A DNA stretch of 32,000 bases from positions 3,619,448 to 3,651,447 of the forward strand of contig NZ_CP036287.1 of assembly GCF_007748095.1 (NCBI RefSeq), written 5' to 3'. Positions 7,587 through 24,273 of the stretch are shown piece by piece; within the stretch, counting starts at the first letter, position 1; each line of letters begins with the position of its first letter. This stretch comes from Engelhardtia mirabilis. Lineage in GTDB: Bacteria; Planctomycetota; UBA1135; GCA-002686595. The position numbers were made by a program, and so were the translations under genes. The notes beneath the pieces are model-generated. The model ran no database searches. It worked only from the letters and a program-made list of their open reading frames with translations, and was not told the DNA's origin.

Positions 7587-10500
7587 ATGAAGGACCCGGA
7601 GATCTGGCCTCCCTGGCTCGTCCGTATTCGCGCTCAGCAGGGAAACGAGGAGGGAGTCGGCGCTGGTCTGCTGATCGCCCCCGACCTCGTCCTCACCGCG
7701 TGGCACGTGGTGAACGTCGACGGCAAGTACCGTGGCACGGCGACGTCGGGCGGGACCCCGATGGCCGCGGCCAGGATCGACCTGGAGATCGGAGGCAAGC
7801 ACCGCCGGTCCATCCCGACCCCCCACCAGCGGCATGTGTCCTTCGCCGACAAGCCCGTCGACGACGAAGGCCAAGGCCGCGACTACGACCTCGCGCTGGT
7901 CCGGCTCGAAGAGGACCCGGTCCCGATCGATTCGGGCGACCTCCTTCCGATCGCCCGCGGTGTGCGACGACTCGAGTACCTGGCCCTCGGTGACCTCGGT
8001 CCGGACGAGCCCTTCCAGGTCGTAGGGTTTCCGGGTGGGAGCCTGCGCACGAAGCGTTTCGACGACGGTGCCCCCGACCCGGAGCGTGCCGGCGACGAGT
8101 TCTACGAGGTCCACCTGGGCCACCGAGTTCCCGAGGGCTACAGCGGCGGACCCATTCTGGCCGAGGTCGACGGCCAAGCTCTGTGCCTGGGGCTCGCGAG
8201 CCTCGGTGGAGCCACGGTCGGCTCTTCGGTCCAGACCTTCTCGGGAGCGATCATCGAGTTCCTCGATCAACAGAAGGTCCTTCGACGCGAAGGCGATCGG
8301 CTTCAGGTACCGACCGAGGACCTCGGCCGATTGCTCCTGCGCAGGCCACTCGAGTGCATCGCGGAACGCAACGACCGGCTTCCGCCGATCTTGTCCCGGT
8401 CCGCCCGCAAGGAGTGGAAGCTGCACGACCTGTTCCAGGAGCGGATCGTCGTGGACCGGGCAGCGACGGGCGGTGGCGACAGTGACGGTAACGCGAAGGC
8501 CGGTGGCCTGAGGGAGTTGGTGGATTGGACGCCCACCGTCGACTCGCCCCCGCGATGGGTCCTGCGAGGCGCGGGGGGAACCGGCAAGACGACTCTCCTG
8601 CGCCACCTCGCCTTCGAGCTGGCCCGCGAGGCGAATCAGGCCGGGGATGGCGCAGCGCTGCCACCGGTGGCCATCTTCCTGCGCCTGCCCCTCATCGTCC
8701 GTCGAGGGCCCGACTGGAGAGCGGCGCTGTTCGACGAGCTGAGAGATCGCGTGGATCGTGCTGCGATCCTCACGAGGGCGCTCAGCTCGCGCGTTTCCGA
8801 ACCCCGGATCCTGCTGCTGCTCGACGGGCTCGACGAGGTCGACGCCGGAGAAGTGACCGAGAACACCATCTCGCTCCTGCTTCAGGGCCTGCCCGATCAC
8901 CTCCCCGGAGTCGGCCTGGTCGTGGGCACTCGCCCGACGGGCTTCGACGACCGAGAGCCGGCGCTCACGCGACACTGGAACACCGCTTCGGTCGAGCCCC
9001 TGGATCGAGATCACCAGATCCGACTGGTCACCGAGGTGTCGAAGGCGATCGGCCGGCCTTGCTCAGAGAAGGCGACCGCCGCATGGGTCCATCAGATCAG
9101 TCGGGACGAGCGATTCGCCGACATCCGCGGCAACCCACTCTGGTTGACGCTGGCCGCCCTCGCCGTGGACCCGGAGACGGGGGCTCCACCGCCGTCCATG
9201 TCGGGCCTGCTCGCCAAGGCAGTCGACCACCTTGTAATGGGCATGCACCGCGGCGACCTCGAGCCCAGAGCTCGCCGCAGACGTACTCCCGTGGCAGGTC
9301 CGATCCCCAGCGCGGCCCGTCCGGTCTTGGGAACGATCGCACTCGCCATGACCCTCCAGCGTCAGGACGAACTCCGCTTCGACGACCTGGTCGAGGTCTG
9401 CAAGAACCTCCGCAAGAGAGCGGACCACGACGTCCGAGGCAGCGATGAACTCTGGGCTCGGTTGACGGAAGCCTGGGAATTGCTCGAGGACGATTCGGAG
9501 GAGAGCATCCTCGATCAGCTTTCGCTCGGCACCGATATCCTGAGCCCGCTCGAGGAGGACGGCGAACAAGTGGAAGACGGGGGATCCGACGCCGACGAGC
9601 TCTGGTCCTTCAGACATCGGACCGTGAAGGAGTTCCTCTCTGCCGATCAGCTCCGCCGCATGCTCGAAGGCGACGACGCTCCTCACGCCCAACAGCTGAT
9701 CGAGGCAGGCCTCGACGCCGACCTCGAGGGCTCGGTCCGGCACTGGGCCGGACCTGCGGCCCTTCTCGTCGAGATGCTCGACGACGCGACCGGGGCGGAA
9801 CGCGTGCTCCGGTGCCTCGCACCGAGGGATCCCGAGGCCGCTCGCCGCGCCCTGCTAGGAAGACCGAACGCCACGGTGGGCTCGATCCACATCGTCTTGG
9901 CGTCGCTCGAAAAGGAAGGGGACCGCGCGGCGGTGATCGAGCAGATCGATCGGCTGATCGAGGATCGTCAGGAGGCCTTCGATCTCCTGCGAAGCCTCGG
10001 CCTCGATCCCCGGATCCGAGCGGACCTGTACTTCGTCGACGAAGCACTGCTGGCCTTCGGAGTGCGGCACGAGGATCTCGCGGACGAGGCCGATGCCGCG
10101 AGACTGCGGATCTACGAGGAGCTGCCGGTCGAGCCGACGTGGCGTGCACCGTTCGAGCGGACGTTCGGGGATCCGGGGGTGCCCCTGTGGCGACCGGTAA
10201 CGCGGCACCTGACGTTCGGTTACGGCGATCGCGAGCTGGAGCAGGTGACGGAGCAGCCGTTCCAGATCTCGGCGGTTCCGGTGACGGAGGAGATGTACCG
10301 GATATTCGACCCGCACGATGATCAGCGGAAGTCGGAGCCAGGTCTCCTTCCGGCGCGCTCGGTCAGTTGGTGGGGTGCGATGGCCTTCTGTCGCTGGGCC
10401 GGAGCGAAGCTCGGTTTCGGTCTCGCCGGGAGCCTGCCGACAGAGCGTCAGTGGGAGTGTGCCGCGCGGGCCGGGACCGAGAGCGACTACTGGTTCGGCC

Positions 10501-10811
10501 CCGAGGCGCTCGACGAGCATGGGTGGTATGGGCAGAACTCTGAGTCTCGTGCCCACGATGTCGCGACTCGGCCGCCGAACGGCGACCGGCCCCAGCAGCC
10601 CAACCCGAACGGCCTTTTCGATGTCCACGGAAACGTCTGGGAGTGGTGTGTGGACCTCTTCGGCCGCGACGGCCCGAGGCGCGTGTTGCGCGGCGGTTGC
10701 TTCTGGTACGCGGCCGCGAGCTGTCGCTCGGGGTTCCGCTACTGGGACCACCCGGCGGACCGCGACCGGCTCCGGGGCTTCCGCGTCGTCCTCCCGGCCG
10801 ACCTTCGATGA
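7587..10811 (+). CDS. trypsin-like serine protease / NACHT (STAND) NTPase / FGE-sulfatase (C-type lectin fold) protein; DGR target 1
   Basis: ATG at 7587, 1074 aa. S1 triad motifs LTAWHV, DLALVRL and GYSGGP. Walker A GAGGTGKTT (about nt 8570-8600) and Walker B LLLLDGLDEV (about 8810-8840). NACHT-end FRHRTVKEFL. C-terminal SUMF1/FGE motifs RQWECAARAG, HGWY, NPNGLFDVHGNVWEWC and RVLRGG...GFRVVLP. VR1 lies at the 3' end. Confidence 0.92.
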   Translation: MKDPEIWPPWLVRIRAQQGNEEGVGAGLLIAPDLVLTAWHVVNVDGKYRGTATSGGTPMAAARIDLEIGGKHRRSIPTPHQRHVSFADKPVDDEGQGRDYDLALVRLEEDPVPIDSGDLLPIARGVRRLEYLALGDLGPDEPFQVVGFPGGSLRTKRFDDGAPDPERAGDEFYEVHLGHRVPEGYSGGPILAEVDGQALCLGLASLGGATVGSSVQTFSGAIIEFLDQQKVLRREGDRLQVPTEDLGRLLLRRPLECIAERNDRLPPILSRSARKEWKLHDLFQERIVVDRAATGGGDSDGNAKAGGLRELVDWTPTVDSPPRWVLRGAGGTGKTTLLRHLAFELAREANQAGDGAALPPVAIFLRLPLIVRRGPDWRAALFDELRDRVDRAAILTRALSSRVSEPRILLLLDGLDEVDAGEVTENTISLLLQGLPDHLPGVGLVVGTRPTGFDDREPALTRHWNTASVEPLDRDHQIRLVTEVSKAIGRPCSEKATAAWVHQISRDERFADIRGNPLWLTLAALAVDPETGAPPPSMSGLLAKAVDHLVMGMHRGDLEPRARRRRTPVAGPIPSAARPVLGTIALAMTLQRQDELRFDDLVEVCKNLRKRADHDVRGSDELWARLTEAWELLEDDSEESILDQLSLGTDILSPLEEDGEQVEDGGSDADELWSFRHRTVKEFLSADQLRRMLEGDDAPHAQQLIEAGLDADLEGSVRHWAGPAALLVEMLDDATGAERVLRCLAPRDPEAARRALLGRPNATVGSIHIVLASLEKEGDRAAVIEQIDRLIEDRQEAFDLLRSLGLDPRIRADLYFVDEALLAFGVRHEDLADEADAARLRIYEELPVEPTWRAPFERTFGDPGVPLWRPVTRHLTFGYGDRELEQVTEQPFQISAVPVTEEMYRIFDPHDDQRKSEPGLLPARSVSWWGAMAFCRWAGAKLGFGLAGSLPTERQWECAARAGTESDYWFGPEALDEHGWYGQNSESRAHDVATRPPNGDRPQQPNPNGLFDVHGNVWEWCVDLFGRDGPRRVLRGGCFWYAAASCRSGFRYWDHPADRDRLRGFRVVLPADLR
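10669..10803 (+). repeat. DGR variable repeat VR1
   Basis: 135 nt colinear with the TR. By hand alignment, 15 mismatches fall at TR adenines and 1 elsewhere. Encodes RVLRGGCFWYAAASCRSGFRYWDHPADRDRLRGFRVVLPAD. Confidence 0.9.
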
Positions 10812-10828
10812 TCGATCTTTGAGATGTG
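10805..10828 (+). repeat. post-VR conserved 24-nt element, copy 1
   Basis: TCGATGATCGATCTTTGAGATGTG directly after VR1. It contains the stop codon and is absent after the TR. Confidence 0.8.
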
Positions 10829-11136
10829 TTCGAATGTGGACCCGAACGGACGTTCCATTCCTCGCGCGGCCCTCGATGACCGAACAGAATTCCGGTCGTC
10901 CCGTTGTTCCGGTCGTCTGCGACCGATCGGTTCTCGAACGCCCCAGATCCCCGGGAACCGAGCCTCCGGTCCCCGCCCAGAAATGGCCCGTTGTGACCGG
11001 CCGACCCGACATCCGGAAGCAGGACGACCCTCAACGGCCATCAGGTTCCGGATCGGGCCTACCCCCTCCACACCCGAGGAGCGCGGCTCGGCCACCAAGG
11101 TCAGCCCGACGCCCTCGACCGCTCTGACGGCTTTCC

Positions 11137-12162
11137 TCAGACGCACAGGACGCTTCCCAACGCTCCTGCCCAACCCTCAGCAGGAATGGCCGGCCCGGTC
11201 CCACGAACGTACCTGGCCGCCCGTGCGCCCATCCGCCTCGCGTGCCTCGGGAGGGGTTCGATCCCGCTGCGGGTTACCAAGTGTCCGAGGGCATCGAGGC
11301 GACCGCTGCAGGATCGCGGGCGAGCCCCGGGGCGCTTCAATCGCAGACCGAGTCGCTCGTCGAGGTACCGCCCCACGTCGTCCCGCGCGGCCCGCAAGGC
11401 CGACCTAGAGTCACCGAACAGGAACAGATCGTCGACGTAGCGGACATAGCCGGGCACGCGAAGCTCGCGCGCGACATGGCTGTCGAGGCCCAGCGGCACA
11501 ACGTGGGCCGCCAAGACCTGGCTCGTGTACGCACCGATGGGCAGTCCCTCGCCGGGCGGCGGCCAATCGGGATCCAGTCGAGCGAAGGCTCGTACGTGAC
11601 GATCGTCGTAGAGGCCCCGCCCGGACTCCAGGATCCGATCGACGACCTGCAGGAACCGCTCGTCGCGGATCCGGCGACGGAGCAGGGACCGGACCAGCTC
11701 GATCCGGATGCTCGGGAAGTAGCTTCGAACGTCCAGATGCACGAACCACGCATGACGGCGGACCAGCTCCAGGATCCGGAGCAACGCGCGATGGGTTCCC
11801 CGTCCGGTGCGGCAGGCGTAGTCCGCGTCCGATAGGGATCGCTCGAGCACAGCCTCGACCAGGCGCGCGACCGCCGTGTGCACCACTCGATCCAGGACCG
11901 ATGCTCGTGCGATGACCCGGGGCTTGGGATCGTGCAGGAACAAGAGATCGAAGGCCCCGTGCCGCCAACGGGCGTCCACGAGCGCGGCACGCAACTCGCG
12001 AAGCTCGGATTCCCGGCGGAACAGGAAGGTCGCGACATCCGCCCGCCGCCGCTTCCCCCGGACGGTGACCCGCGCAGCCTCGTCGAGCCGGTCCTCGTCG
12101 ACCAGCTGCTCGAAGAGGCCGCCCGTGGTCCTGGTCAAGGTGCCCCTCCGGACGCTCGCCAC
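11137..12162 (-). CDS. DGR-type reverse transcriptase
   Basis: 341 aa with a GTG start. RT motifs HLDVRSYFPSI, LPIGAYTSQVLAAH (the DGR-specific IGxxxSQ) and YVRYVDDLFLF (YxDD). Lies 124 nt downstream of the TR. Confidence 0.92.
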   Translation of the reverse strand: MASVRRGTLTRTTGGLFEQLVDEDRLDEAARVTVRGKRRRADVATFLFRRESELRELRAALVDARWRHGAFDLLFLHDPKPRVIARASVLDRVVHTAVARLVEAVLERSLSDADYACRTGRGTHRALLRILELVRRHAWFVHLDVRSYFPSIRIELVRSLLRRRIRDERFLQVVDRILESGRGLYDDRHVRAFARLDPDWPPPGEGLPIGAYTSQVLAAHVVPLGLDSHVARELRVPGYVRYVDDLFLFGDSRSALRAARDDVGRYLDERLGLRLKRPGARPRSCSGRLDALGHLVTRSGIEPLPRHARRMGARAARYVRGTGPAIPAEGWAGALGSVLCV

Positions 12163-12286
12163 CGGCGGTGACTACGGGAACGGAGGGGCGAGGTCGGACG
12201 AGCGGGCCGGAAGGTCCGGCTGCGACGTCCGCGGGGAGGGGCCTGATCGCGGATCCGCTCGCCTCGCGAGCTCCGTCCGCGGGCTG

Positions 12287-12421
12287 GGTCGGCCGGGAGG
12301 ACGACGCGGAAGCCCTGGTTCCGGTTGCGGTTCGCCGGGTGGTTCCTGTTCCGGTACCCCGAGCGACAGTTCGCGGCCGTGTTCCAGTAGCTACCGCCGC
12401 GCATCACGCGCCTCGGGCCGT
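12287..12421 (-). repeat. DGR template repeat (TR)
   Basis: A 135-nt non-genic copy of the target 3' ends. It reads RVMRGGSYWNTAANCRSGYRNRNHPANRNRNQGFRVVLPAD, with seven AAC codons and about 25 adenines. It sits between avd and the RT and lacks the 24-nt post-VR element. Confidence 0.9.
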
Positions 12422-12795
12422 GGGGCCCCTGCCCCTGCACCGGACTTGGAGAATCGCCGGGAGCTGCGGCCCCATCCACCGAGCATGCGGCCGATCGTGT
12501 CGAGCTCCGCCGAAGCGAACCGCATCCGTCGCTTCGTCAGGTAGCCCAGCGACTCGGCGAGCCGCAGCAGCACCCGGAGGCGGACCACACCTCGATCGGC
12601 GGCGCGACGATGGTCGTCCCTCTCGGCCGGGAAGGTCAATGCTATCGAGACATCCGCGACGAGGTCCTGGACGGCGTCGGCGACCCGTCCGGCCGAGCAC
12701 ATGGCTTCGGGTTGCGGCCATCGCGCGACCTCGGCCAAGAGCCAGGTCGCGAGGTCATGGCTGCGTACGTAGAGAGGCGCGCGTCGCCAAGTCAC
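12391..12795 (-). CDS. avd: accessory variability determinant (Avd, four-helix-bundle family)
   Basis: 134 aa with a GTG start overlapping the upstream stop (GTGA). PLYVRSHDLATWLL at the N-terminus and LDTIGRMLGGW near the C-terminus are Avd hallmarks. The 3' end overlaps the TR. Confidence 0.8.
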   Translation of the reverse strand: MTWRRAPLYVRSHDLATWLLAEVARWPQPEAMCSAGRVADAVQDLVADVSIALTFPAERDDHRRAADRGVVRLRVLLRLAESLGYLTKRRMRFASAELDTIGRMLGGWGRSSRRFSKSGAGAGAPRPEARDARR

Positions 12796-13382
12796 CGCTC
12801 GCGCCTCCCGAGCTTCTCGCTCCAGCGGATGAGGCCCCCCAAGGTCGGAAGGACCTCCGACTCAATCCGCGCGGCCCAGGCGAGCTGCTCCCCCTCCGGC
12901 TCGGCGTCCTGGATCAACAGGAGGCCCACGCAACGGCTCATCAAGCACCGGGCGCGGCGGAGGGCCTCGCCCTTACGATCCGCGTCGTAGGCGTGGACGC
13001 CCTCGCAGACGGCCAGCAGTCCGGACAGGAGCGCGCGCTCCGCAGCGGACGACGATGATCCTGTCGATGCCGCGGTTGCTCGCATAGCCGCGAGAACCGC
13101 GCGCCCACGACGAAAGCACTCGACGTCCTCCACGGATCGCCGACGGTCACCGTGCCGCACGGCCGCCCTTGAGGGAAGGGCCTCTTCGACCGCCTCGCGC
13201 ACATCGTCGGCTCGTCGTTGGAGCGACTGACGCTGATCCTCGGTCAAGGGCAGGCTCTCGCGCCGGATGCGCCAGGACTTGCCATGCTTGGCCCCCCGCA
13301 ACTCACCCCGTGCGAGCCGTGCACGGACGGCGCGCGGGCTCACCCCGAGAACGACGGCAGCTTCGCGAACGCTCAGTTCCAT
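12792..13382 (-). CDS. excisionase/MerR-type HTH protein with helical C-terminal domain (DGR-associated)
   Basis: MELSVREAAVVLGVSPRAVRARLARGELRGAKHGKSWRI is a typical N-terminal HTH. The C-terminus ...LPTLGGLIRWSEKL faintly echoes the Avd C-terminus. Alternative ATG starts at 13505 and 13517. Confidence 0.65.
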   Translation of the reverse strand: MELSVREAAVVLGVSPRAVRARLARGELRGAKHGKSWRIRRESLPLTEDQRQSLQRRADDVREAVEEALPSRAAVRHGDRRRSVEDVECFRRGRAVLAAMRATAASTGSSSSAAERALLSGLLAVCEGVHAYDADRKGEALRRARCLMSRCVGLLLIQDAEPEGEQLAWAARIESEVLPTLGGLIRWSEKLGRRER

Positions 13383-13732
13383 CCCGGTGGATCGAACCGG
13401 CTGGATGGATCGAGGTTCCGATCCAGAAGACGATCTCGTGGACGTCGTGGAACTCGTGACCTCCTCGAGGATGCCGATGACCGGATCGAGGGACGAAGTG
13501 GCCATCGACGGCCGCATGAGTAGCCATCAATGGCCGCAACTGGCCGTCGCGACGTGTGAGCGGTCAGTGCGGGAGGTCGAACCGAGTCCAATCGGAAACG
13601 ACACCGGCACGCGACGGCCGAACGGCGCAGGGGTCGCCTCGGTCTCGGGATCCCACCGGAACTGGGTCCGGCCACGTGGTGCCGAGAATCGGCACTGCGC
13701 GTCCCCTCGGCGACGCTCGGGCCGCTCGAAGA

Positions 13733-13756
13733 CACATCTCAAAGATCGATCATCGA
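13733..13756 (-). repeat. post-VR conserved 24-nt element, copy 2
   Basis: The reverse complement reads TCGATGATCGATCTTTGAGATGTG. It contains the stop codon of target 2. Confidence 0.8.
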
Positions 13757-16700
13757 AGCTCGGCCGGGAGGACGAGGCGGAAGCCCAGGTTCCGGTTGCG
13801 GCCCGCCGGGTGGCTCCTGCTCCGGTACCCCGAGCGACAGCCCGCGGCCGTGTCCCAGTAGCTACCGCCGCGCAACACGCGCCACGGGCCGTCGCGGTCG
13901 AAGAGGTCCAGACACCACTCCCAAACGTTCCCGTGGACATCGAGAAGGCCGTTCGGGTTGGGCTGCTGGGGCCGGTCGCCGTTCGGCGGTCGAGTCGCGA
14001 CATCGTGGGCACGAGACTCAGAGTTCTGCTCATACCACCCATGCTCGTCGAGCGCCTCGGGGCTGAACCAGTAGTCACCCTCGGTCCCGGCCCGCGCGGC
14101 ACACTCCCACTGGCGCTCGGTCGGCAGGCTCCCGGCGAGACCGAAACCGAGCTTCGCTCCGGCCCAGCGACAGTAGGCCATCGCACACCACCAACTGACC
14201 GAGCGCGCCGGAAGGAGACCTGGCTCCGACTTCCGCTGATCATCGTGCGGGTCGAAGACCCGGTACATCTCCTCCGTCACCGGAACTGCCGAGATCTGGA
14301 ACGGCTGCTCCGTCACCTGCTCCAGCTCGCGATCGCCGTAACCGAACGTCAGGTGCCGCGTTACCGGTCGCCACAGGGGCACCCCCGGATCCCCGAACGT
14401 CCGCTCGAACGGCGCACGCCACGTCGGCTCGACCGGCAGCTCCTCGTAGATCCGCAGTCTCGCGGCATCGGCCTCGTCCGCGAGATCCTCGTGCCGCACT
14501 CCGAAGGCCAACAGTGCTTCGTCGACGAAGTACAGGTCCGCTCGGATCCGGGGGGCGAGGCCGAGGCTTCGCAGGAGATCCAAGGTCTCCATACGATCCT
14601 CGATCAAGTGCTCTACCTGAGAGATCACGGCCCCCCGATCCTCCTCCTCCTCGAGCGATGAAAGGACGATCATGACAGCATTCGTCGAAACCGCTCGACT
14701 CGCCATCAACGCGCGTCTCGAGATCGCCGGCGCATCCTCGAGGCTCTCGAGCAGGACTTCGACTTCCCCTTCGACGAGTCGTTCCGCCAGCATGCCGAGC
14801 GGCTCGGACCAGAAACGCGCGACGTCGTCCTCTCCATTGTCGCTCTCAGCGTCACCATCCATGCTCCCCTGTTCTGCGCCAACCAGCTCGAGCCAGTCGC
14901 ACCAAGAACGCAATCCGGCCGGACCCTGCGAACTCAACCAGCCTTCATTCGTGCTCAACCTGAGCGCACTCAGGATGCTTCGCGCATTGTCAGCCAGACG
15001 AACGTCGTCAGCATCGATCTGCGAGAGCGCTCGGTCGAACCGCTGCAGAAGTGCACGACGCACAGCCCCAGCGGCCGACCGCGCGCGAGCAAGAACATCG
15101 TCCTGCCCCCCTGCCGCCGTCCACCTCTCCCAGAGCCATTCCGACGTCAGAAACTCGAGCGTCGACCGGTGCCAGAAGCGCCAGTCCTCGTCAATGTCAT
15201 TTCCGCGTCGTCGGATCCTCCGCTCTGGCGGTGTCAGGATCGAATTGCGTTCGAGCCACCTGAGGACGTCATTCGGAGCGCAACGTTCCTTCAGATCCAG
15301 GAGGTCCCGGCGAAGGTCGGTCCATGGCGTCGGAGCGCTTCCATCAGCGCCGCGCTCCGAGTCCTTCAGATCCTCGAGCCATGTCTCCATGACGCTGCGA
15401 GGGACCTGTACCAGGCCCTCCGAAGACATCCGGTGGGCCAACCATCGGAGCACGGGCCGGACGGACCGTGGAAGCGCCTCGGGCTGCACCGAGTCGTCGT
15501 CCGCCACTTCGTGGATCTGCCGCTGATCGCGGCGGTGCTTGCCCGCCTCCAGTCGACGGAGGATCGCGTCGAGCAGGTCGACCCGCGAGCCTGGCTCACG
15601 GTCCTCCTCGAAGATCACGATGGCTGCCATGGTCAACCACAGCGGGTTCCCGCGTTCCTCGTCGTAGCGGGCATCGACTTGGATCCGGTCGACCCAGTCC
15701 TCGAGTGCCGCCGCGTCCATCGTCGGCTTCGCGGGGCCGCCGAACTTCCGGTGCTGCCCCACCAGCTTGACGAGCAATTCCTTCTGCCGATCGGCACCCA
15801 GAGGTTCGACGCTCGCCAAGCTCCACGCTTTGAACTGGGCGCTCCGTTCAAGGTAGCGTGACGGTCTGGTTCCGAGCGCCACGGGCGTTCTGGGCAGCTC
15901 GCGCGGGATCGAAGCGAGCAGGGCCCCCACGTTCGGCCGCTCGGCCTTGCTCACCTCGTCGTAGCCGTCCAGCAACAGCACCAGCTCACCGCGAGGATCT
16001 TGCGCGCCGAGCAGCTCCCCCGTGTAGTGGTCGACCTTTTTCGTGACGTATTGGACGAGGTCTTCGAACGGACGAGTGCCGACGTTCTTCAGGTCCGGTA
16101 GACGGACGAGCAAAGCGACCCTGTCGCCTTCGTCGATGGGACGATCTGAGCCGGTCGCGAGGCGAGCGTCCGCGAGCCGCTTGGCCAGCTGGCGAAGGAT
16201 CGTCGTCTTGCCCGTTCCGGCTTCACCGCGAAGGATGATCCGGGGTTGATCCGATTCCGCGGAGGGTGAGTTCGAGCCGGGCCCGGACGGGACCTCACTT
16301 GCCGGTGACTCCTCGTCGAACGCATCCTCGAGCCCGAGGTGTCGCGCGAGGGACGTCTGTCCATGCACCGCGGCGCGAACCGCCTCCCCGTCCCGCGGAA
16401 CCTCCAAGGTGACGCGATCGACGAAGACGTCGTCGAGGCTGAGATCGGGTGCCCATGGGAGGACGTCGCACTCGGCCGAGAGCCGACCGAGAAACGGTTT
16501 CAACAGCAGTGAGCGAAGATCGGGTGAGCTCGGTAGCGCGAGCGATTCGCCCCCGCCGTCCCGCTCCTCGATCACCCGCCGAGCGTTGTCGAGGAACGGT
16601 CCGACGGTGCCTGCCAGCAGGTAGCCCGAGAACGGGTGATTGGACCCGCCGACGATGGTGATCCCGACCCAGTGGAGATCCGATCCGACACGCAGCAGCA

Positions 16701-17310
16701 GGGGCCCTCCACTGAAGCCGCCGTGGACCCTCCCGTGTTCGGCCCCAAGATCACGAGCCTCCCGATGGAGGTGGTCAGGGTCCCAGCCCTCGAGCCGTGC
16801 GCTCTGGTCGTCTGGGCTCTCGACGCCGTCGGGGAAGCCCCAGATCGCGAACGACGAACCGCGGGCGACCAGCGCTCGGGCCTCGAGCTCACCAAGACCA
16901 CGGGTCAGCGACGCAACGGCATCCCCCTCGGCCAGGCCAGGAACCCTCAGCAGTGCCAGGTCCACCGAGCGCCCGACCCCAGAGAGGTCGCCCGACGCGA
17001 ACAGGACGTCGGCCGACGACGGGTCGTACGGACCGATCGAGTGAATGGACGGTTCGGAGTCCAGTGCCGTGGGGTGATCGGCAAGTGTCACCACGACGCC
17101 CTTGGCAGGATTCGGCGACTCGGACCGGCCACCACTGAACGTCCCGGTCCGGCTGAGAACGTGCCAGGCGGTCAGAACCCATCCCGGCGCGACGATCACG
17201 CCGGAACCGAAGTTGTCATCAGTCGTCGTCTTGCCGTTCTTGGTCTTCTCGACCCGGCACTGGATGCGAACCAGGGATGGCACCGCCGAAGGCCAATCGA
17301 GATCAGGCAA
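13750..17310 (-). CDS. trypsin-like serine protease / NACHT (STAND) NTPase / FGE-sulfatase protein; DGR target 2 (cis target upstream of avd-TR-RT)
   Basis: 1186 aa. The apparent start is TTG at 17308-17310; the GTG at 17281-17283 is the alternative. Triad motifs LTAWHV, DLALLRV and GFSGGP. Walker A GEAGTGKTT (about nt 16195-16230) and Walker B LVLLLDGYDEV. WRFWHRSTLEFL. The C-terminal FGE domain is nearly identical to that of target 1. Confidence 0.9.
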   Translation of the reverse strand: MPDLDWPSAVPSLVRIQCRVEKTKNGKTTTDDNFGSGVIVAPGWVLTAWHVLSRTGTFSGGRSESPNPAKGVVVTLADHPTALDSEPSIHSIGPYDPSSADVLFASGDLSGVGRSVDLALLRVPGLAEGDAVASLTRGLGELEARALVARGSSFAIWGFPDGVESPDDQSARLEGWDPDHLHREARDLGAEHGRVHGGFSGGPLLLRVGSDLHWVGITIVGGSNHPFSGYLLAGTVGPFLDNARRVIEERDGGGESLALPSSPDLRSLLLKPFLGRLSAECDVLPWAPDLSLDDVFVDRVTLEVPRDGEAVRAAVHGQTSLARHLGLEDAFDEESPASEVPSGPGSNSPSAESDQPRIILRGEAGTGKTTILRQLAKRLADARLATGSDRPIDEGDRVALLVRLPDLKNVGTRPFEDLVQYVTKKVDHYTGELLGAQDPRGELVLLLDGYDEVSKAERPNVGALLASIPRELPRTPVALGTRPSRYLERSAQFKAWSLASVEPLGADRQKELLVKLVGQHRKFGGPAKPTMDAAALEDWVDRIQVDARYDEERGNPLWLTMAAIVIFEEDREPGSRVDLLDAILRRLEAGKHRRDQRQIHEVADDDSVQPEALPRSVRPVLRWLAHRMSSEGLVQVPRSVMETWLEDLKDSERGADGSAPTPWTDLRRDLLDLKERCAPNDVLRWLERNSILTPPERRIRRRGNDIDEDWRFWHRSTLEFLTSEWLWERWTAAGGQDDVLARARSAAGAVRRALLQRFDRALSQIDADDVRLADNARSILSALRLSTNEGWLSSQGPAGLRSWCDWLELVGAEQGSMDGDAESDNGEDDVARFWSEPLGMLAERLVEGEVEVLLESLEDAPAISRRALMASRAVSTNAVMIVLSSLEEEEDRGAVISQVEHLIEDRMETLDLLRSLGLAPRIRADLYFVDEALLAFGVRHEDLADEADAARLRIYEELPVEPTWRAPFERTFGDPGVPLWRPVTRHLTFGYGDRELEQVTEQPFQISAVPVTEEMYRVFDPHDDQRKSEPGLLPARSVSWWCAMAYCRWAGAKLGFGLAGSLPTERQWECAARAGTEGDYWFSPEALDEHGWYEQNSESRAHDVATRPPNGDRPQQPNPNGLLDVHGNVWEWCLDLFDRDGPWRVLRGGSYWDTAAGCRSGYRSRSHPAGRNRNLGFRLVLPAELR
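13758..13892 (-). repeat. DGR variable repeat VR2
   Basis: 135 nt colinear with the TR. 10 mismatches at TR adenines and 2 non-A mismatches, both in the last 25 nt. Encodes RVLRGGSYWDTAAGCRSGYRSRSHPAGRNRNLGFRLVLPAE. Confidence 0.9.
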
Positions 17311-17313
17311 GCT

Positions 17314-18651
17314 TCACGCCCCCGGGATGCGGTCGAGGATCTCGCGCGCCCATTGTTTCGAGGTCACCGATCCGTGCTCCCCAACGTGCTCCAGCCCGGC
17401 AATCCAACCGGCACGATGGGACTCCGGCACCTCGCTCCAGTTGTCCGCATCGGCCAGAACGTGAGCCAGTGCCAGCCCGCACAGCTGGACCTCGAACTCC
17501 TCGTCGTAGAGCAGGTGGGAGAACGCCGCGTCATCGGGCAGCTCGAGTTTCTCGCGAAACTTCTCGAGTAGCTCCTCACTGCCGACCGCACCGCCGCCGT
17601 CGACGACGACGATCTCACCGTGGCCATCGGAGCTACCGCGCTGAACCGCCGTTCCCCTGGCAGGACCTTGATCCTGAATAACATCGGTCGCCCTGAGTCC
17701 TCTGCGGTTGAACCGGTTCAGCGACTCGATGAAGATCGATGCAGCGAGCATCGCAACCGGCTTCCCGCTCCAGGATTCGCCGCGCGGACCGTTTTCGAGC
17801 GAACGAGGTCCCGACAACGCTTTCCAAACGGCCGCTTCGAGCAACGCCGGGGCCTTCTCGATCGTGGCGTCCGAGATGAAGATGCTCTTCGACGCGCCCG
17901 CCTTCCGAGGTCGGCGCGCGTAGCCGATGTCGATGACTCGAGCCGTCACCAGCCGCAGGACAGTCTCGAGCAGCTTACTCCCAAGGATCGTCTGCACCAC
18001 GAGGCCGGGACCGCTCTCAGGGATCGGGCACAGACCCCAGCGCATCATCGGATTCTTTACGACCTCGTCGTCGTCCGCGCCCTCCTTCTTCCTCTGCTCC
18101 CCGGTCCAGAAAGTGCGGCCGGTCTCGATGTCCGGCAGCGCACGCCGCGGTCCACGAAGGACCGCCCGTAGCTGGGACCCGACAGATTCAAAGGGGTCGA
18201 ACTTCAGAGCCTCTACGGCCACCCTCCAGTCGTCACTCGACCGCGCCGCCCGCTGGAACTGGTCCATCCGCTTCTTCTCGGACTTCTGGCTTCCGTATCG
18301 GAACAGGCTCTCGTCGATCCAATCCTCGGAGTAGGGGTGGAGTGCGAGCAACAGCGCGTGACCGCGAACTCGATCGTCACTGGTTCGGGCCGACAGCGTC
18401 CACTCTCCCCGATCCAGTTCCTCGGGGAACGGATAGGGCTTCGCGTGGTACTCCATCTCGACGTCGTCCACGAAGACGTAGTTGCCATCGGCCGCCTCGT
18501 CGTAGGCGATGAGCGTCGGGGAGATCGGATGCCGCGAGGCGCTCTCGCTGACGGGCTCCATGGGGAACTCCGTCATCCCCCCGGGGGGCGGATCGGGCGG
18601 CTCGGGCGGATCTCCGGCTTCGTACAGCGGACGGACGTCGAACTCGCTCAT
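17314..18651 (-). CDS. hypothetical protein, translationally coupled partner of DGR target 2
   Basis: ATG at 18649-18651 (MSEFDVRPLYE...), 445 aa; the longest ORF extends to 18738. High GC3 and no motif I recognise. Its stop at 17314-17316 lies one codon before the target 2 start, in the same frame. Confidence 0.7.
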   Translation of the reverse strand: MSEFDVRPLYEAGDPPEPPDPPPGGMTEFPMEPVSESASRHPISPTLIAYDEAADGNYVFVDDVEMEYHAKPYPFPEELDRGEWTLSARTSDDRVRGHALLLALHPYSEDWIDESLFRYGSQKSEKKRMDQFQRAARSSDDWRVAVEALKFDPFESVGSQLRAVLRGPRRALPDIETGRTFWTGEQRKKEGADDDEVVKNPMMRWGLCPIPESGPGLVVQTILGSKLLETVLRLVTARVIDIGYARRPRKAGASKSIFISDATIEKAPALLEAAVWKALSGPRSLENGPRGESWSGKPVAMLAASIFIESLNRFNRRGLRATDVIQDQGPARGTAVQRGSSDGHGEIVVVDGGGAVGSEELLEKFREKLELPDDAAFSHLLYDEEFEVQLCGLALAHVLADADNWSEVPESHRAGWIAGLEHVGEHGSVTSKQWAREILDRIPGA

Positions 18652-18810
18652 GGCACTCGGAAACGATCGGGTGATTCGGATCGGCCGGGTCCACAGGCAA
18701 CCTCCTCCCGGCTCCGTGGTCGAACCTAGCGCCGCCAACGGGGTCCGGGAAGGCCCTAGCCGGCGTCGACACGCCGCTTGTCAGGCTGCTAGTCTCCCGA
18801 GACCCGGCCC

Positions 18811-21800
18811 ATGCTCCCGAGCACAGACAGATCTCGACCCTACGTCCTGCGTGTCACCTCCGACGACGGGAACCCGGCGGCGGGGATCCTGGTCTCGGAG
18901 AACTATGCGGTGACCTGCTGGCACGTCGCCAACGGCAGTGGAAAGTTCAGCGAGAAGGTCCCCAACTCCCGTGAGGCGGCATGGGGGCTCTGCGCCGGCG
19001 GTCGGCCGGCCGAGGTCGTGGCCTGGGGCGACCTCCCTGGGATCGGCTATGAGGTAGACGTGGCTCTGCTGAAGCTCGAGGGTGCGCCAGCGAGTCTCGA
19101 GAGTGCCGACCTTGCCCTGGCGTACGACTCCCGACTCTTCGACCAGCTCCTCGACAGTGTTTCCTACCTCGAGGTGGAGGGGTTCCCTCGCCACTCGCCG
19201 ACCTCGCACGTCGAATCCTGCCGGCCACACAAGGGATCGGGATCGTCGAGTACGAGCCGGGGTGGCCAGGTCACCGAGTTCGGCCTCTTCGCCCGCGTCC
19301 ACGAGGGAGTCAGCGGCGGACCCGTGGTCGCCGGACGTGGAGGCGAGGAGGTCTGCGTCGGGATGGCCTGTCTCGGCAGCTCGAGGTCGCTGCAGATGGC
19401 GGCCGTGTCGTCGGGTGAACTGCTGGCGCTCCTCGAGCACCACTTCGACGGAGAGCTTCCCCATGCGGTCCGAACCAGGCCCCTCGACGACTGGCTCATC
19501 GACCATGGCGTGATCGAAACGCGCGGGTCCTATCTCCGTGCACTGAGGGCTCGGGTCGAAGAGGACCACGACTTGCTCAGGATGCTCGGGGTCGATGACC
19601 TCGCCGACGAGTTCTTCGATCGGGTCTACGTCCGACTCGAGGTCGGAGTCAGTCCCTCGTTCGCGCAGCGTCTAGCCGATCTAGGCGATGAAGAAGACGC
19701 CAGCATTCCCCCGTCTGGTGTCCGCCTAGACCAACTGCTGTCGATCCCGCCTGCCCGGTTCGGCATCGCCGGGCCGCGATTCGTCCTGCGCGGCGAACCA
19801 GGCTCGGGCAAGACCACGATCCTGCGCCAGCTCGCCTGGTCCCTCGCCGGCGACGACGACGCCGCCTGGACGCCGGTAAGGATCGGGCTCCCCGACTTCG
19901 CGCGCTGGAGAGCGGGGCAGAATCGAAAGGGCGACGCCTGGGACAAGCTGCTCGACTACCTCGAGGAGCAGCAGGACATTGCCGATGCTCGCCGCGAGGC
20001 GCTCGTGGCCGAGCGCGAGCATGGGCGTCTGCTGCTGCTCCTCGACGGGCTCGACGAGGTCCGCGGCGAGTTGAGAACCACCACTCGCTCCTGGCTCGCG
20101 AACCTCTCCGAACAGATGGGCTCGTCCGCCATCGTCGTGGCGACGCGGACGATTCCGTATCGCAAGCCCGCGGGCGGCTACGTGGAGGCGGACGTCGAGC
20201 CCATGGGAATCGCTCAACAGAAGAAGTTCCTGAGCGCCTGGATCGGCGACGAGGGGGCGGCCGAGGATCACATCAAGCGCTGGGCCGACCTCCCCCACAG
20301 CCGATTGTCGCTTCTGGCCGGGAACCCGCTCTGGTTGACGTACTTCGGCTTGCTCTTGCGCCGTGGCGAGACGCCCGATGAGTCTCGCAGCGCACTCTAC
20401 GAGCAGGTCCTCGAGCTGCTCCTCTCCGGTGAGTTCCAGGATCCTCCGAAGAAGAACCCGAATCCGGCCGTGATGCGCGCTGGGCTCGTGTTCCTGGCGG
20501 TCCAGATGAGCAAGAAGGGCGAGACAGCAGTTCGCAAGTCGGACCTCGACGCCCTATTCCAAGAGCAAGGCGTCGAGACGGACGTCGCCGTCCGCGCCGT
20601 GCTCAACGAATGGAGCCGACGCCCTGACGATTTCCTCCAGGACGTGCAGGCGATCACGGGGATCATCGGTCGATACGGCGAGAAGGAGGGGAGGAACTGG
20701 CGTTTCTGGCACGGCCAGCTTCGTGAGGTCCTGGTCATGATTTGGCTGCGGAGCCTCACCCGCGACGAGCAGCTCGCCGAGGCCGCCGCGCTGGCGGAGG
20801 ATCACCTCGGCTTCTTCGCCGAACCGTTCGCGCTCCTGGTCGGCACGGATGAGCTGGCCGACAAGGACGAGATGATCGAGCGGCTCGTCGAGCACAATCC
20901 GGTCCTGGGGCGCAGAGTGCTGGCCAGTGCTACAGGAGTGTCGCCGTCGACGGTCGAGAAGGTGCTGGGGCTCGATTCGTCGGACCCTGAGCGTCGCGGC
21001 GAGATTCTCCTGGACCTGCCGAACATCCTGGGTCGCGGGGAGGGGGCACGGGCCGCAACGATTCAACTCGTCGAACGGCTGTGGATGGCGAGCCGGTCCA
21101 GCGAGGAGGAGATGTGGGCGGACTGCTACCACCTGGACGAGCTACTCGTCGCGCTCGAGGAGGAACCGGGTGAGCTAGTGTCCACTCGTAGAGCCCTGTA
21201 CTTCCGGCGCTTTGGACAACCGGACCGTCCGACCTTGAAGGAGTTGTTTCCGCCGATCCACGGGCTCACCCCCTTTCCTCGGATCGATCCCGGTTCATTC
21301 GCAATGGGTGACGGGGACGCTCCCAGTCGCCAGCAGGTGAAGATCCCAACCCCATTCCGGCTCGGGGCAACTCCCGTCACCGAGAGCCAGTTCAGCTTGA
21401 TGTCTGGCAGGGAGATCGAGACGAGTAGCCGTAAGCCGAAGGGCGAGATCAACTTCTTTGGAGCCATGCTGTACAGCAGGTTCCTCGGTTGGGCGATGGG
21501 ATCGGATCAGCCGGGCGACCTGCCGACCGAGGCTCAGTGGGAGTACGCAGCGCGAGCAGGCAACGAGGGTGACTACTGGTTCAGCCCTGGGGCCCTGGAC
21601 GACCACGGCTGGTACGAAGGCAACTCGGGAGGTCGGGTCCACGACGTCGCCACTCGCCCCCCGGATGGCGAGGAGCCGCAGCAGCCGAATCCGAACGGCC
21701 TGTTCGACGTGCACGGGAATGTTTGGGAGTGGTGCCAGGACCTTCTCGGCGGCGCCGGCCCGTGGCGCGTGATGCGCGGCGGTAGCTTCTGGGACTCGGC

Positions 21801-21912
21801 CGCGAACTGTCGCTCGGGGTACCGGATCAGGAACCACCCGGCGAGCCGCCTCTGGGACCTGGGCTTCCGCGTCGTCCTCCCGGCCGACCGGAGCTTGGCC
21901 ATCGATGATTGA
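18811..21912 (+). CDS. trypsin-like serine protease / NACHT (STAND) NTPase / FGE-sulfatase protein; DGR target 3
   Basis: ATG at 18811, 1033 aa. Triad motifs VTCWHV, DVALLKL and GVSGGP. Walker A GEPGSGKTT (about nt 19795-19825) and Walker B LLLLLDGLDEV. C-terminal FGE motifs AQWEYAARAG, HGWY and NPNGLFDVHGNVWEWC. VR3 lies at the 3' end. Confidence 0.9.
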   Translation: MLPSTDRSRPYVLRVTSDDGNPAAGILVSENYAVTCWHVANGSGKFSEKVPNSREAAWGLCAGGRPAEVVAWGDLPGIGYEVDVALLKLEGAPASLESADLALAYDSRLFDQLLDSVSYLEVEGFPRHSPTSHVESCRPHKGSGSSSTSRGGQVTEFGLFARVHEGVSGGPVVAGRGGEEVCVGMACLGSSRSLQMAAVSSGELLALLEHHFDGELPHAVRTRPLDDWLIDHGVIETRGSYLRALRARVEEDHDLLRMLGVDDLADEFFDRVYVRLEVGVSPSFAQRLADLGDEEDASIPPSGVRLDQLLSIPPARFGIAGPRFVLRGEPGSGKTTILRQLAWSLAGDDDAAWTPVRIGLPDFARWRAGQNRKGDAWDKLLDYLEEQQDIADARREALVAEREHGRLLLLLDGLDEVRGELRTTTRSWLANLSEQMGSSAIVVATRTIPYRKPAGGYVEADVEPMGIAQQKKFLSAWIGDEGAAEDHIKRWADLPHSRLSLLAGNPLWLTYFGLLLRRGETPDESRSALYEQVLELLLSGEFQDPPKKNPNPAVMRAGLVFLAVQMSKKGETAVRKSDLDALFQEQGVETDVAVRAVLNEWSRRPDDFLQDVQAITGIIGRYGEKEGRNWRFWHGQLREVLVMIWLRSLTRDEQLAEAAALAEDHLGFFAEPFALLVGTDELADKDEMIERLVEHNPVLGRRVLASATGVSPSTVEKVLGLDSSDPERRGEILLDLPNILGRGEGARAATIQLVERLWMASRSSEEEMWADCYHLDELLVALEEEPGELVSTRRALYFRRFGQPDRPTLKELFPPIHGLTPFPRIDPGSFAMGDGDAPSRQQVKIPTPFRLGATPVTESQFSLMSGREIETSSRKPKGEINFFGAMLYSRFLGWAMGSDQPGDLPTEAQWEYAARAGNEGDYWFSPGALDDHGWYEGNSGGRVHDVATRPPDGEEPQQPNPNGLFDVHGNVWEWCQDLLGGAGPWRVMRGGSFWDSAANCRSGYRIRNHPASRLWDLGFRVVLPADRSLAIDD
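21755..21889 (+). repeat. DGR variable repeat VR3
   Basis: 135 nt colinear with the TR. 11 mismatches at TR adenines (counting the boundary base) and 1 non-A mismatch. Encodes RVMRGGSFWDSAANCRSGYRIRNHPASRLWDLGFRVVLPAD. Confidence 0.9.
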
Positions 21913-21925
21913 TCTTTGAGATGTG
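21902..21925 (+). repeat. post-VR conserved 24-nt element, copy 3
   Basis: TCGATGATTGATCTTTGAGATGTG, 1 mismatch to copies 1 and 2. It is displaced 12 nt from the VR3 end by an insertion and contains the stop codon. Confidence 0.8.
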
Positions 21926-24214: not shown

Positions 24215-24273
24215 GCCGGAGGGTGGTAGCGGTGGACGGACTTGAACCGCCGACCCGCGGATTATGATTCCGC
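24215..24273 (-). repeat. tRNA 3'-half remnant, att-like direct repeat copy B
   Basis: Same T arm, acceptor and CCA as copy A. The anticodon arm is GCGGA-ATCATAA-TCCGC. No complementary 5' acceptor strand or D arm lies upstream. Confidence 0.7.

Follow-up and report, generated by a model that had tools for sequence, protein, structure and literature searches.

Organization of the locus

The window (the whole 32,000-nucleotide stretch of DNA analysed here) comes from the planctomycete Engelhardtia mirabilis Pla133/Pla86, in whose records the locus carries no DGR annotation. A core cassette lies entirely on the minus strand, in the order HTH accessory gene, avd, template repeat (TR), structured spacer and reverse transcriptase (RT), and is accompanied by three paralogous target genes that each end in a variable copy (VR) of the template.

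7587-10811, plus strand: target 1, 1074 aa, WP_145065990.1 / QDU67645.1; Trypsin_2, NACHT and FGE-sulfatase domains (Pfam); exact E. mirabilis match
11137-12138, minus strand: DGR reverse transcriptase, 333 aa, TTG start, WP_419191500.1; RVT_1 match; start confirmed by an exact RefSeq match
12135-12255, minus strand: structured part of the TR-RT spacer RNA, with a hairpin and the long-range helix CCCCTCCG/CGGAGGGG; the whole spacer spans 12139-12286
12391-12795, minus strand: Avd accessory gene, 134 aa, GTG start, QDU67647.1; bAvd and DivGenRetAVD matches; exact database match
12792-13382, minus strand: second accessory gene, 196 aa, WP_419191501.1; excisionase/MerR-type winged HTH and C-terminal four-helix bundle
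13750-17283, minus strand: target 2, 1177 aa from GTG 17283, QDU67649.1; Trypsin_2, NACHT and FGE-sulfatase domains (Pfam); exact match
17314-18651, minus strand: gene without assigned function, 445 aa, WP_145066000.1; next gene upstream of target 2, same orientation
18811-21912, plus strand: target 3, 1033 aa, WP_145066002.1; Trypsin_2, NACHT and FGE-sulfatase domains (Pfam); exact match

The RT carries the motifs YVDD, LDVRSYFPS and LPIGAYTSQ and has an intact active site; the last of these motifs fits the pattern [I/L]GxxxSQ, which we take to be DGR-typical. Its top PDB match (E 1.3e-24) is the 328-aa chain 8ub7, whose name says only 'Reverse transcriptase' and which is presumably the DGR RT of Bordetella phage BPP-1. 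The Avd protein matches Pfam bAvd (E 8e-9, 36.4 bits against a cut-off of 40) and NCBIfam DivGenRetAVD (E 1.4e-13, 51 bits against a cut-off of 80), in both cases under the curated cut-off; its position, its size and its conservation in 16 related loci agree with the assignment.

The long-range helix of the spacer RNA ends just 5' of the RT start. A covariance model of the spacer (R1) produced one match per locus, directly 5' of the RT, in 18 loci, four of which lie outside the set from which the model was built. In this structure 91% of cells are paired, and the covariation is 0.456, compared with 0.169 for shuffles and at most 0.16 for slid partners. An ORF on the opposite strand (10824-11408, plus) was judged not to be a gene: it overlaps the 3' end of the RT gene, has no family matches and is not conserved.

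Template and variable repeats

The four copies of the repeat are located as follows.

10669-10803, plus strand: VR1; 15 A-site and 1 non-A mismatches to TR
12287-12421, minus strand: TR; 25 adenines, seven in-frame AAC codons; 5' part shared with the final avd codons
13758-13892, minus strand: VR2; 10 A-site and 2 non-A mismatches to TR
21755-21889, plus strand: VR3; 11 A-site and 1 non-A mismatches to TR; paralog identity steps up at the VR boundary

A first-pass annotation of this DNA had described four colinear 135-nt copies, and a MAFFT alignment of 135 gap-free columns bears this out. The mismatch counts that it gave for each VR, identical to those above, are matched exactly by an independent tabulation, and the TR peptide, its seven in-frame AAC codons and the replacements listed for each Asn are correct. 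Realignment and tabulation by TR base, the check set in that annotation, place the mismatches predominantly at adenines rather than evenly over the template: 36 of 40 pooled mismatches (90%) fall on the 25 adenines among 135 bases (18.5% of the template; binomial p 1.8e-22). The enrichment holds for each VR taken singly (one-sided Fisher p 1.6e-12 for VR1, 4e-7 for VR2 and 1e-8 for VR3). At least one VR is altered at 22 of the 25 TR adenines, and a stop codon can be reached by A-to-N change at none of them.

Only the copy at 12287-12421 has A at every variable column, which marks it as the TR, and its upstream flank is unrelated to those of the VRs (23-27% identity). An N-masked 28-mer derived from the repeat occurs exactly four times in the window and never in shuffles, so that no fifth copy is present in the window. 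Differences at non-A sites number 4 among 330 positions over the three VRs: G>C in VR1, G>C and C>G in VR2, both within the 3' constant segment, and C>T in VR3. The two changes in VR2 could reduce homing there.

Identity between the paralogs changes abruptly at the VR boundary. Targets 1 and 3 are 72-78% identical upstream of the VR, 98% identical at non-A VR sites and 24% identical at A sites. Compared with targets 1 and 2 together, target 3 shows 72-79% identity just upstream of the VR, 97-98% at non-A sites and 24-52% at A sites, the last being the chance level. Low upstream identity combined with high non-A and chance A-site identity shows templated homing into all three genes, so that the view of all three as targets now stands on more than the VRs merely differing from one another. 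All three VRs are independent A-to-N rewrites of one template. The signature of mutagenic homing proposed in the first-pass annotation is likewise supported, every needed component being present and apparently intact.

Ordinary paralogous or gene-converted sequence, with an A bias that is coincidental or reflects selection on Asn codons, is a vanishingly improbable origin for the repeats. Target 2 does share its last 939 nt with target 1 as an inverted repeat of 93% identity (pair I1), which fits a recent duplication or gene conversion. However, the fourth copy is non-coding-like and lies between avd and the RT; nine-tenths of the mismatches affect a base that makes up less than a fifth of the template (p 2e-22); A sites differ between VRs to chance level next to non-A sites that are 97-98% identical; and 17 independent related loci show this pattern too. 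The A-site tabulation, the related loci and the identity step together refute this explanation.

The last 29 nt of homology are the same in TR, VR1 and VR3, and no difference between IMH and IMH* was found for VR1 and VR3. A hairpin or cruciform after the VRs was also considered and rejected: no convincing GC-rich hairpin follows the VRs, and the VR flanks fold as DNA no more stably than their shuffled versions do (z -0.4 to +1.4). A downstream inverted repeat is found in only 34% of DGRs, and IMH equals IMH* in some (Wu et al. 2018, PMC5758913); since both features are lacking in some known DGRs, their lack here is not disqualifying.

The three VRs could have been rewritten in the past by an element that is now silent or inactive. 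The target 1, 2 and 3 proteins are identical in the two deposited E. mirabilis genomes (QDU... and QDV... accessions), which implies that VR1, VR2 and VR3 are identical as well. The pair of non-A changes that VR2 carries in its 3' constant segment would fit this reading too, and a scan of a metagenome collection with the N-masked TR/VR 28-mer returned 0 matches and so no natural variants to compare. On the other hand, the RT, Avd and HTH genes are intact in sequence, as is the spacer structure, and the 4/330 non-A differences indicate that the last homing events were recent relative to neutral drift. In addition, the two genomes compared may be near-clonal, with a length difference of ~2.3 kb and a single species description. 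An inactive relic is thus considered rather unlikely.

Target proteins

Target 3 lies 9.3 kb from the TR and is 34% identical to target 1 overall. The catalytic triad (H40/D101/S186) and the Walker A (GxGKTT) and Walker B (LLLDGxDE) motifs are kept in all three paralogs. In each target the FGE-sulfatase Pfam domain stops only a few residues short of the C-terminus, and the VR forms the C-terminal end of this FGE-sulfatase/C-type-lectin (CLec) domain. Among solved structures, the variable domain is closest to the Treponema denticola DGR variable protein TvpA (2y3c; E 1.4e-11), whose FGE-type C-type-lectin fold likewise ends in the VR. TvpA differs in being a lipoprotein without NTPase or protease modules. 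No hydrophobic N-terminal signal sequence was seen by eye in the target alignment; the targets are therefore probably cytoplasmic, which favours intracellular ligands.

Database records name the targets "Ser/Thr kinase pkn1" or "SUMF1/EgtB/PvdO family enzyme", annotations that the protease-NACHT-CLec assignment corrects. A search of the targets against the PADLOC defence-system models gave no significant match, only weak ones at the P-loop level (E 4e-5 to 7e-4). In overall plan the targets resemble the Avs/bNACHT defence proteins, with an effector, a STAND NTPase with intact Walker motifs and a C-terminal sensor, and in both groups the N-terminal effectors are swapped among relatives (protease, TIR, SIR2). 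The sensor differs: a DGR-hypervariable CLec domain takes the place of TPR-like repeats, and a defence role here is putative.

HTH accessory protein and VR-flank motif

The product of the second accessory gene matches the profiles HTH_17 and TIGR01764. Its AF2 model (pLDDT 84) shows fold matches to Xis and BldC in the N-terminal part and weak matches to the Avd-family bundles 2gsc, 2rld and 4dwl in the C-terminal part (Foldseek E 0.04-1). By sequence, the C-terminal bundle was rejected as an Avd paralog (hhalign probability 0.15; no Pfam or NCBIfam Avd match). UniRef names the protein 'Four helix bundle protein'.

Of 29 RT-related loci, 22 carry this gene immediately 5' of avd. A metagenome search with a six-sequence alignment found it at five loci, mostly short; in three it stands beside DGR parts (avd or an RT remnant), and the other two contigs end inside the gene. 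The known DGR accessory genes are Avd, HRDC, MSL (MutS-like) and CH1 (Wu et al. 2018, PMC5758913), MSL being said to resemble the MutS mismatch-recognition domain. Like MSL, the HTH gene is a small conserved gene inside the cassette that adjoins avd; judged by their descriptions, it fits none of the four.

A heptad motif accompanies the VRs.

10804-10829, plus strand: VR1-flank heptad motif TTCGATGATCGATCTTTGAGATGTG; nhmmer profile match; 1 nt past the end of TR homology and across the stop codon
13733-13757, minus strand: VR2-flank heptad motif; nhmmer match; inverted-repeat pair I8
21900-21936, plus strand: VR3-flank heptad motif; nhmmer match and alignment; inverted-repeat pair I8

The motif is a direct repeat with the consensus TnGATCnTnGATCwTwGAGAGTGT (TnGATCn TnGATCw TwGAGAG TGT). 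Every VR has it close by on its 3' side and always in the same orientation relative to the VR, whichever strand the VR is on and even at a distance of 9 kb; the window holds no copy after the TR. The VR3 copy begins ~11 nt past the VR3 end, and its reading-frame relation to the stop codon differs from that at VR1. An early motif pattern, GATCNTNGAGNNTGT, was mis-spaced and matched by chance only; the nhmmer profile was used instead. The HTH gene upstream of avd, the covarying TR-RT spacer structure and the heptad motif beside the VRs are all conserved across the RT clade.

Xis and BldC-type domains bind head-to-tail direct repeats. A tentative proposal, which we consider doubtful at present, is that target choice in this RT clade depends on a dedicated module of HTH protein and heptad motif, not on IMH and hairpin as in BPP-1. 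The HTH protein would be a candidate for marking the recipient DNA or for tethering an RT-Avd-cDNA complex there, and such targeting, if true, would explain the diversification of convergent targets on opposite strands. A clade-wide gene and motif offer a testable handle on how DGR cDNA finds and replaces its target, to our knowledge the least understood step of DGR biology.

Relatives and comparison with known systems

A-biased TR/VR pairs were found in 17 related loci, whose RTs are 45-60% identical to the one described here; in 10 of the 17, VRs flank the core on both sides, one on each. The targets in the related loci are again NACHT-CLec proteins, with the N-terminal effector swapped (TIR, SIR2 or none).

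A phage-borne DGR that switches host range (tropism) in the manner of BPP-1 is a highly improbable reading of the locus. Phage-like genes are present at 25.4-29.4 kb (an RNA ligase, a DUF1376 primosomal protein and a C5 DNA methyltransferase), and 59-nt direct repeats, which by eye only resemble a tRNA 3' end, bracket the region, but the phage-like genes fall outside the bracketed segment, which is 18.5 kb long. ARAGORN and Rfam reported no tRNA genes, and no integrase was found among the scanned ORFs of the repeat-bounded segment. The targets themselves are protease-NACHT proteins of more than 1000 aa, not tail fibres. The RT is at most 31% identical to phage RTs (50,697 phage records), as against 33-37% to cellular cyanobacterial and Chlorobi (plasmid) DGR RTs, which are thus somewhat closer, and the related loci were found in large chromosomal contigs.

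The element shares with the BPP-1 DGR (mtd-avd-TR-brt) an RT, an Avd, A-specific mutagenesis and an AAC-rich TR. In both, moreover, the VR forms the C-terminal end of a CLec fold, and the spacer separating TR from RT is structured. The element differs from that phage-borne system and its tail-fibre target in being chromosomal, with NLR-like intracellular targets. It also differs in that IMH equals IMH* for VR1 and VR3 and in having no GC-rich hairpin after the VR; the conserved heptad motif, richer in AT, is found instead, along with the additional HTH gene.

The architecture matches that of the STAND-NTPase/CLec DGRs of Dore et al. 2024, and the system type is already described. As in Thiohalocapsa PB-PSB1 DGR 3 and DGR 6 (PMC10907252), the element is cellular, has an avd-TR-RT core and serves at least two targets, which combine a central NACHT/nSTAND NTPase with a C-terminal FGE-type CLec bearing the VR; some of the targets there have N-terminal peptidase or TIR effectors, and the present host, to judge from its phylum, probably forms aggregates as well. 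In Thiohalocapsa DGR 6 a separate trypsin-like protease is linked via an EAD8 adaptor, whereas here the protease is fused in all three targets, and the host, unlike that of the Thiohalocapsa DGRs, is a cultured planctomycete. The systems of Dore et al. belong to RT clade 5, subclade 5D (PMC10907252), and the likeness to them drawn here is one of architecture; no Thiohalocapsa sequence was found among the top 120 relatives of the RT. PMC10907252 mentions neither the HTH/four-helix accessory gene nor the VR-flank heptad motif.

Proposed mechanism and function

With a probability of about 0.9, the locus is a chromosomal DGR of E. mirabilis that has diversified three protease-NACHT-CLec NLR-like putative sensors, their immune role being read from domain architecture only. 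Following the Bordetella phage paradigm, the TR and spacer would be transcribed, and the RT with Avd would copy the TR RNA into cDNA with misincorporation opposite adenines. Each of the three paralogs would then have its 3'-terminal 135-nt VR replaced by this homologous cDNA. In the encoded proteins, the N-terminal trypsin-like protease would act as the effector, the central NACHT NTPase as the switch and the C-terminal FGE-type CLec as the sensor, whose ligand-contacting residues would be the randomized ones. Randomization of the VR could yield about 10^14 different proteins from each gene. The targets would most likely act as a set of variable sensors inside the cell, with the protease carrying out the response when invaders such as phages are sensed. 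The same role has been proposed for the STAND-CLec DGR targets of aggregate-forming bacteria (PMC10907252).

NLR-like targets could alternatively serve self/non-self discrimination (kin or allorecognition) or developmental signalling in aggregates instead of anti-phage defence, which is considered quite unlikely. Fungal NACHT/NLR proteins mediate allorecognition, and PADLOC shows no match to known defence systems. Cultures of the host phylum, the Saltatorellota, usually form large aggregates (10.1101/817700). Against this, the sensors, with no signal sequence visible by eye, are probably cytoplasmic, the N-terminal modules exchanged among relatives (TIR, SIR2 and protease) are typical abortive-infection effectors, and the published interpretation favours defence (PMC10907252).

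Variable sensors of invaders, the preferred function, would accord with the proposal that DGR-diversified NLR-like proteins provide prokaryotic anticipatory immunity, an idea worked out from environmental metagenomes of Thiohalocapsa aggregates and described by its authors as experimentally untested (PMC10907252). The present locus is a complete three-target example with fused protease effectors in an axenic culture-collection strain (Pla133 = DSM 103766), so that both DGR activity and sensor function can be tested there. New relative to the first-pass annotation are the identity of the targets as protease-NACHT proteins, the conserved accessory gene and the VR-flank motif.

Neighbouring gene

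The 445-aa gene next to target 2 has no Pfam, NCBIfam, PADLOC or PHROG match, and its sole database relative is itself. It is absent from the related loci and probably belongs to the target 2 operon.

Template and variable repeats

The diversity-generating retroelement (DGR) and its surroundings comprise the following features, the variable repeats (VRs) forming the 3' ends of the target genes.

7587-10811 (+), target 1: Trypsin_2, NACHT and FGE-sulfatase domains
10669-10803 (+), VR1
11137-12138 (-), reverse transcriptase (RT) gene, core cassette
12139-12286 (-), TR-RT spacer, core cassette
12287-12421 (-), template repeat (TR), core cassette
12391-12795 (-), avd (accessory variability determinant), core cassette
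12792-13382 (-), HTH gene, core cassette
13750-17283 (-), target 2: Trypsin_2, NACHT and FGE-sulfatase domains
13758-13892 (-), VR2
17314-18651, 445-aa gene directly upstream of target 2
18811-21912 (+), target 3: Trypsin_2, NACHT and FGE-sulfatase domains
21755-21889 (+), VR3
25447-29360, phage-like gene run

The first-pass annotation had described four colinear copies of one repeat differing almost exclusively at TR adenines. The copies align over 135 columns with zero gaps, and a fresh tabulation by TR base, with the TR (25 A in 135 bases) as reference, reproduces its mismatch counts exactly: VR1 differs from the TR at 15 adenines and one other position, VR2 at ten and two, and VR3 at 11 and one. 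Fisher p-values for the adenine bias are 1.6 × 10−12, 4 × 10−7 and 1 × 10−8, respectively; pooled, 36 of 40 mismatches fall at A (binomial p = 1.8 × 10−22), with a spectrum of A>T 17, A>G 16 and A>C 3. The TR peptide, its seven in-frame AAC codons and the Asn replacements listed for the VRs were also all correct. In at least one VR 22 of the 25 TR adenines are altered; A-to-N changes cannot produce a stop codon, and the computed repertoire of each VR is in theory about 10^13.9 proteins. The non-A changes are one synonymous G>C in VR1 and one C>T in VR3, each adjoining mutated adenines, and two in the 3' constant segment of VR2. Searching with an N-masked 28-mer of the repeat gives four matches in the window, against none in shuffled sequence; thus, the window holds no fifth copy.

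The proposal that all three genes have been targets is borne out by targets 1 and 3, the identity pattern of which shows templated overwriting of the VR. They are 72-78% identical across the 240 nt upstream of the VR; within it, identity is 98% at non-A sites and 24%, the chance level, at A sites. Each VR shares 98-99% of non-A positions with the TR, and the upstream flank of the TR is unrelated to the VR flanks (23-27% identity). Given this high non-A identity, the chance-level A sites and the diverged upstream flanks, a single template has repeatedly rewritten the same 135-nt segment of diverged paralogs, randomizing A sites only. Exact protein matches assign the window to E. mirabilis (Planctomycetota; proposed phylum Saltatorellota), strains Pla133 and Pla86 (genomes of ∼6.90 Mb). 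The two deposited genomes do not differ in targets, RT or Avd, so that their comparison yields no evidence of ongoing diversification. Judged from sequence, the DGR components (RT, Avd and spacer structure) are intact. Members of the host phylum form large aggregates in culture (10.1101/817700).

Target genes

All three targets share a catalytic triad (H40, D101 and S186), a Walker A motif GxGKTT and a Walker B motif LLLDGxDE. The closest solved relative of the variable C-type-lectin (CLec) domain is the Treponema DGR protein TvpA (2y3c, E = 1.4 × 10−11). Targets 1 and 2 flank the core cassette in convergent orientation, and target 3 lies 9.3 kb from the TR. Targets 1 and 2 are ∼50% identical overall, and a 939-nt inverted repeat (9891-10829/13732-14670; 93% identical, reaching ∼97% over 10008-10668) covers their CLec domains, which suggests that the sensor domain was recently duplicated or gene-converted. 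This repeat could permit inversion of the HTH-avd-TR-RT core.

A second RefSeq version of target 2 (WP_419195445.1, 941 aa) occurs on one contig only (6,899,822 bp); it begins at residue 237 and therefore lacks the protease domain, the remainder, including VR2, being identical. The shorter version could reflect a difference in annotation, or the N-terminus could be disrupted in that assembly. The 445-aa gene has no family match in Pfam, NCBIfam, PADLOC or PHROGs, its sole database relative is itself and related DGR loci lack it; its product might serve the protease as a lineage-specific partner or substrate. The targets are named 'Serine/threonine-protein kinase pkn1' in GenBank and 'SUMF1/EgtB/PvdO family nonheme iron enzyme' in RefSeq, and the RT 'reverse transcriptase domain-containing protein'; none of these record names carries a DGR label, and no paper in the library searched names Engelhardtia together with DGRs.

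Core cassette and accessory gene

The RT contains the motifs LDVRSYFPS, LPIGAYTSQ and YVDD, and among solved structures its closest relative is 8ub7 (E = 1.3 × 10−24), a 328-aa chain with no name beyond 'Reverse transcriptase' and presumably the Bordetella phage DGR RT. Its TTG start at 12138 agrees with homolog N-termini and the RefSeq protein. Avd is matched by Pfam bAvd and NCBIfam DivGenRetAVD with good E-values, yet under the curated cut-offs. Within the TR-RT spacer, RNA structure is conserved: a covariance model derived from 14 loci matches once per locus, directly 5' of the RT, at 18 loci including four held out. In it, 91% of cells are paired, and the covariation score of 0.456 exceeds those of shuffles (0.169) and of slid partners (at most 0.16).

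In 22 of 29 RT-related loci the HTH gene immediately precedes avd; among five metagenome loci recovered with the HTH gene itself, avd or an RT remnant adjoins it in three, and the other two contigs stop inside the gene. The product has an excisionase-family HTH (TIGR01764 and HTH_17 matches). Its AlphaFold model (pLDDT 84) is bipartite: an N-terminal domain can be superposed on Xis of a mycobacteriophage and on BldC of Streptomyces, and the C-terminal part is a four-helix bundle with weak best matches that include the Avd-family structures 2gsc, 2rld and 4dwl; profile comparison of this bundle with the local Avd family was negative. Going by literature descriptions, these domains are unlike the HRDC, MSL and CH1 classes of DGR accessory protein (PMC5758913).

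An AT-richer heptad-periodic motif (consensus TnGATCn TnGATCw TwGAGAG TGT) lies ∼1-25 nt downstream of each VR, including the remote VR3, and is not present after the TR of this window. Over 436 kb, matches to its profile are nearly confined to VR 3' flanks, always in VR orientation, and extend to five loci outside its training set (L017, L019, L021, L023 and L005). Its frame relative to the stop codon differs between VR3 and VR1, so that what is conserved is the DNA sequence. The one match directly after a TR-like sequence is on L031, a 1.2-kb metagenome contig on which an AAC-rich segment following avd runs straight into the motif (900-1070); this is probably a TR/VR assembly chimera. At another related locus, L030 (5658-6602), the motif is followed by an HTH gene cut after ∼104 residues and abutting an RT fragment; such cassettes can therefore erode. 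For VR1 and VR3, the VR-side end of homology (IMH) is the same as the TR-side end (IMH*), and no convincing hairpin was found downstream of the VRs.

Related loci

A scan of the genome collection with the RT gave 29 loci, none above 60% identity; their MAGs carry the labels Planctomycetota/Phycisphaerales, Acidobacteriota and Myxococcota, among others. In the protein database, at least 188 clusters match at E ≤ 10−20, nearly all of them metagenomic, and the closest among the matches listed is 66% identical. Identity is at most 31% to phage DGR RTs and 33-37% to those of cyanobacterial and Chlorobi plasmid DGRs. A-biased TR/VR pairs occur at 17 related loci, ten of which repeat the layout seen here with VRs on both flanks, one on the same strand ∼1.4 kb upstream and one convergent just past the RT. 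Seven of eight sampled targets are NACHT-CLec proteins with a TIR, SIR2 or unrecognised N-terminal module, and the eighth has a CLec match only. TIR or SIR2 domains are found at L007, L009, L015 and L016, the last with an additional ParA/MinD-like ATPase module. In the relatives' targets, effector modules are thus exchanged while the sensor scaffold stays constant, as is typical of NLR-like defence proteins.

Proposed mechanism and comparison

Established here are one A-rich template and three independently A-randomized recipients, the C-terminal CLec tips of protease-NACHT proteins. In the Bordetella DGR paradigm, TR and spacer are transcribed, Avd-assisted self-primed reverse transcription follows and the cDNA replaces the VR. 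By analogy, the transcript would span TR and spacer, reverse transcription would be self-primed and Avd-assisted with misincorporation at A, and the cDNA would replace the VR. As a hypothesis, the HTH/four-helix protein would recognise the heptad repeats and thereby define recipient sites, since Xis and BldC-type domains bind head-to-tail direct repeats. Across the RT clade, convergent targets on opposite strands are both diversified, which disfavours a purely replication-strand-dependent integration route and is a further argument for this hypothesis. The architecture and published work (PMC10907252; PMC7159879) suggest that the targets could act as variable intracellular sensors, in which binding of a ligand would cause the NACHT domain to oligomerise and so switch on the fused protease.

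The locus matches the STAND-NTPase/CLec DGRs of Dore et al. (2024, PMC10907252) in architecture and belongs to this already described type, which was prefigured by Kaur et al. (2020). Unlike the Bordetella phage prototype BPP-1, it is chromosomal, has different targets, lacks the hairpin and (for VR1 and VR3) an IMH/IMH* difference, and carries an extra accessory gene and the VR-flank motif. Its interest is moderate, a cultured strain with a conserved HTH/motif pair offering a testable lead on target recognition.

Genomic surroundings

Two 59-nt direct repeats (5694-5752 and 24215-24273; 95% identical) lie 18.5 kb apart. On the minus strand they resemble a tRNA 3' part by eye (anticodon-arm-like stem, GGTTCAAGTCC T-loop, acceptor strand and CCA); neither ARAGORN nor Rfam reports a full tRNA. 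Because these tRNA-like repeats bracket the whole DGR, its three targets and a fatty-acid desaturase, they suggest an integrated island with att-like ends. The ORFs scanned inside this segment include no integrase. The GC content of the DGR part (0.64-0.69) is slightly below that of the flanks (0.70-0.73). Just past the right-hand repeat, the gene run 25447-29360 encodes an RNA ligase, a DUF1376/primosomal protein and a 646-aa C5 cytosine DNA methyltransferase, and may be a prophage remnant at the same tRNA-like site. The DUF1376 ORF contains 4-6 tandem copies of a 10-11-nt unit (CAACCTGGTT-like) at 26483-26544. At the left edge of the window (255-435), short GTC/GTCATC-type repeats read on the minus strand as an Asp/Glu-rich stretch.
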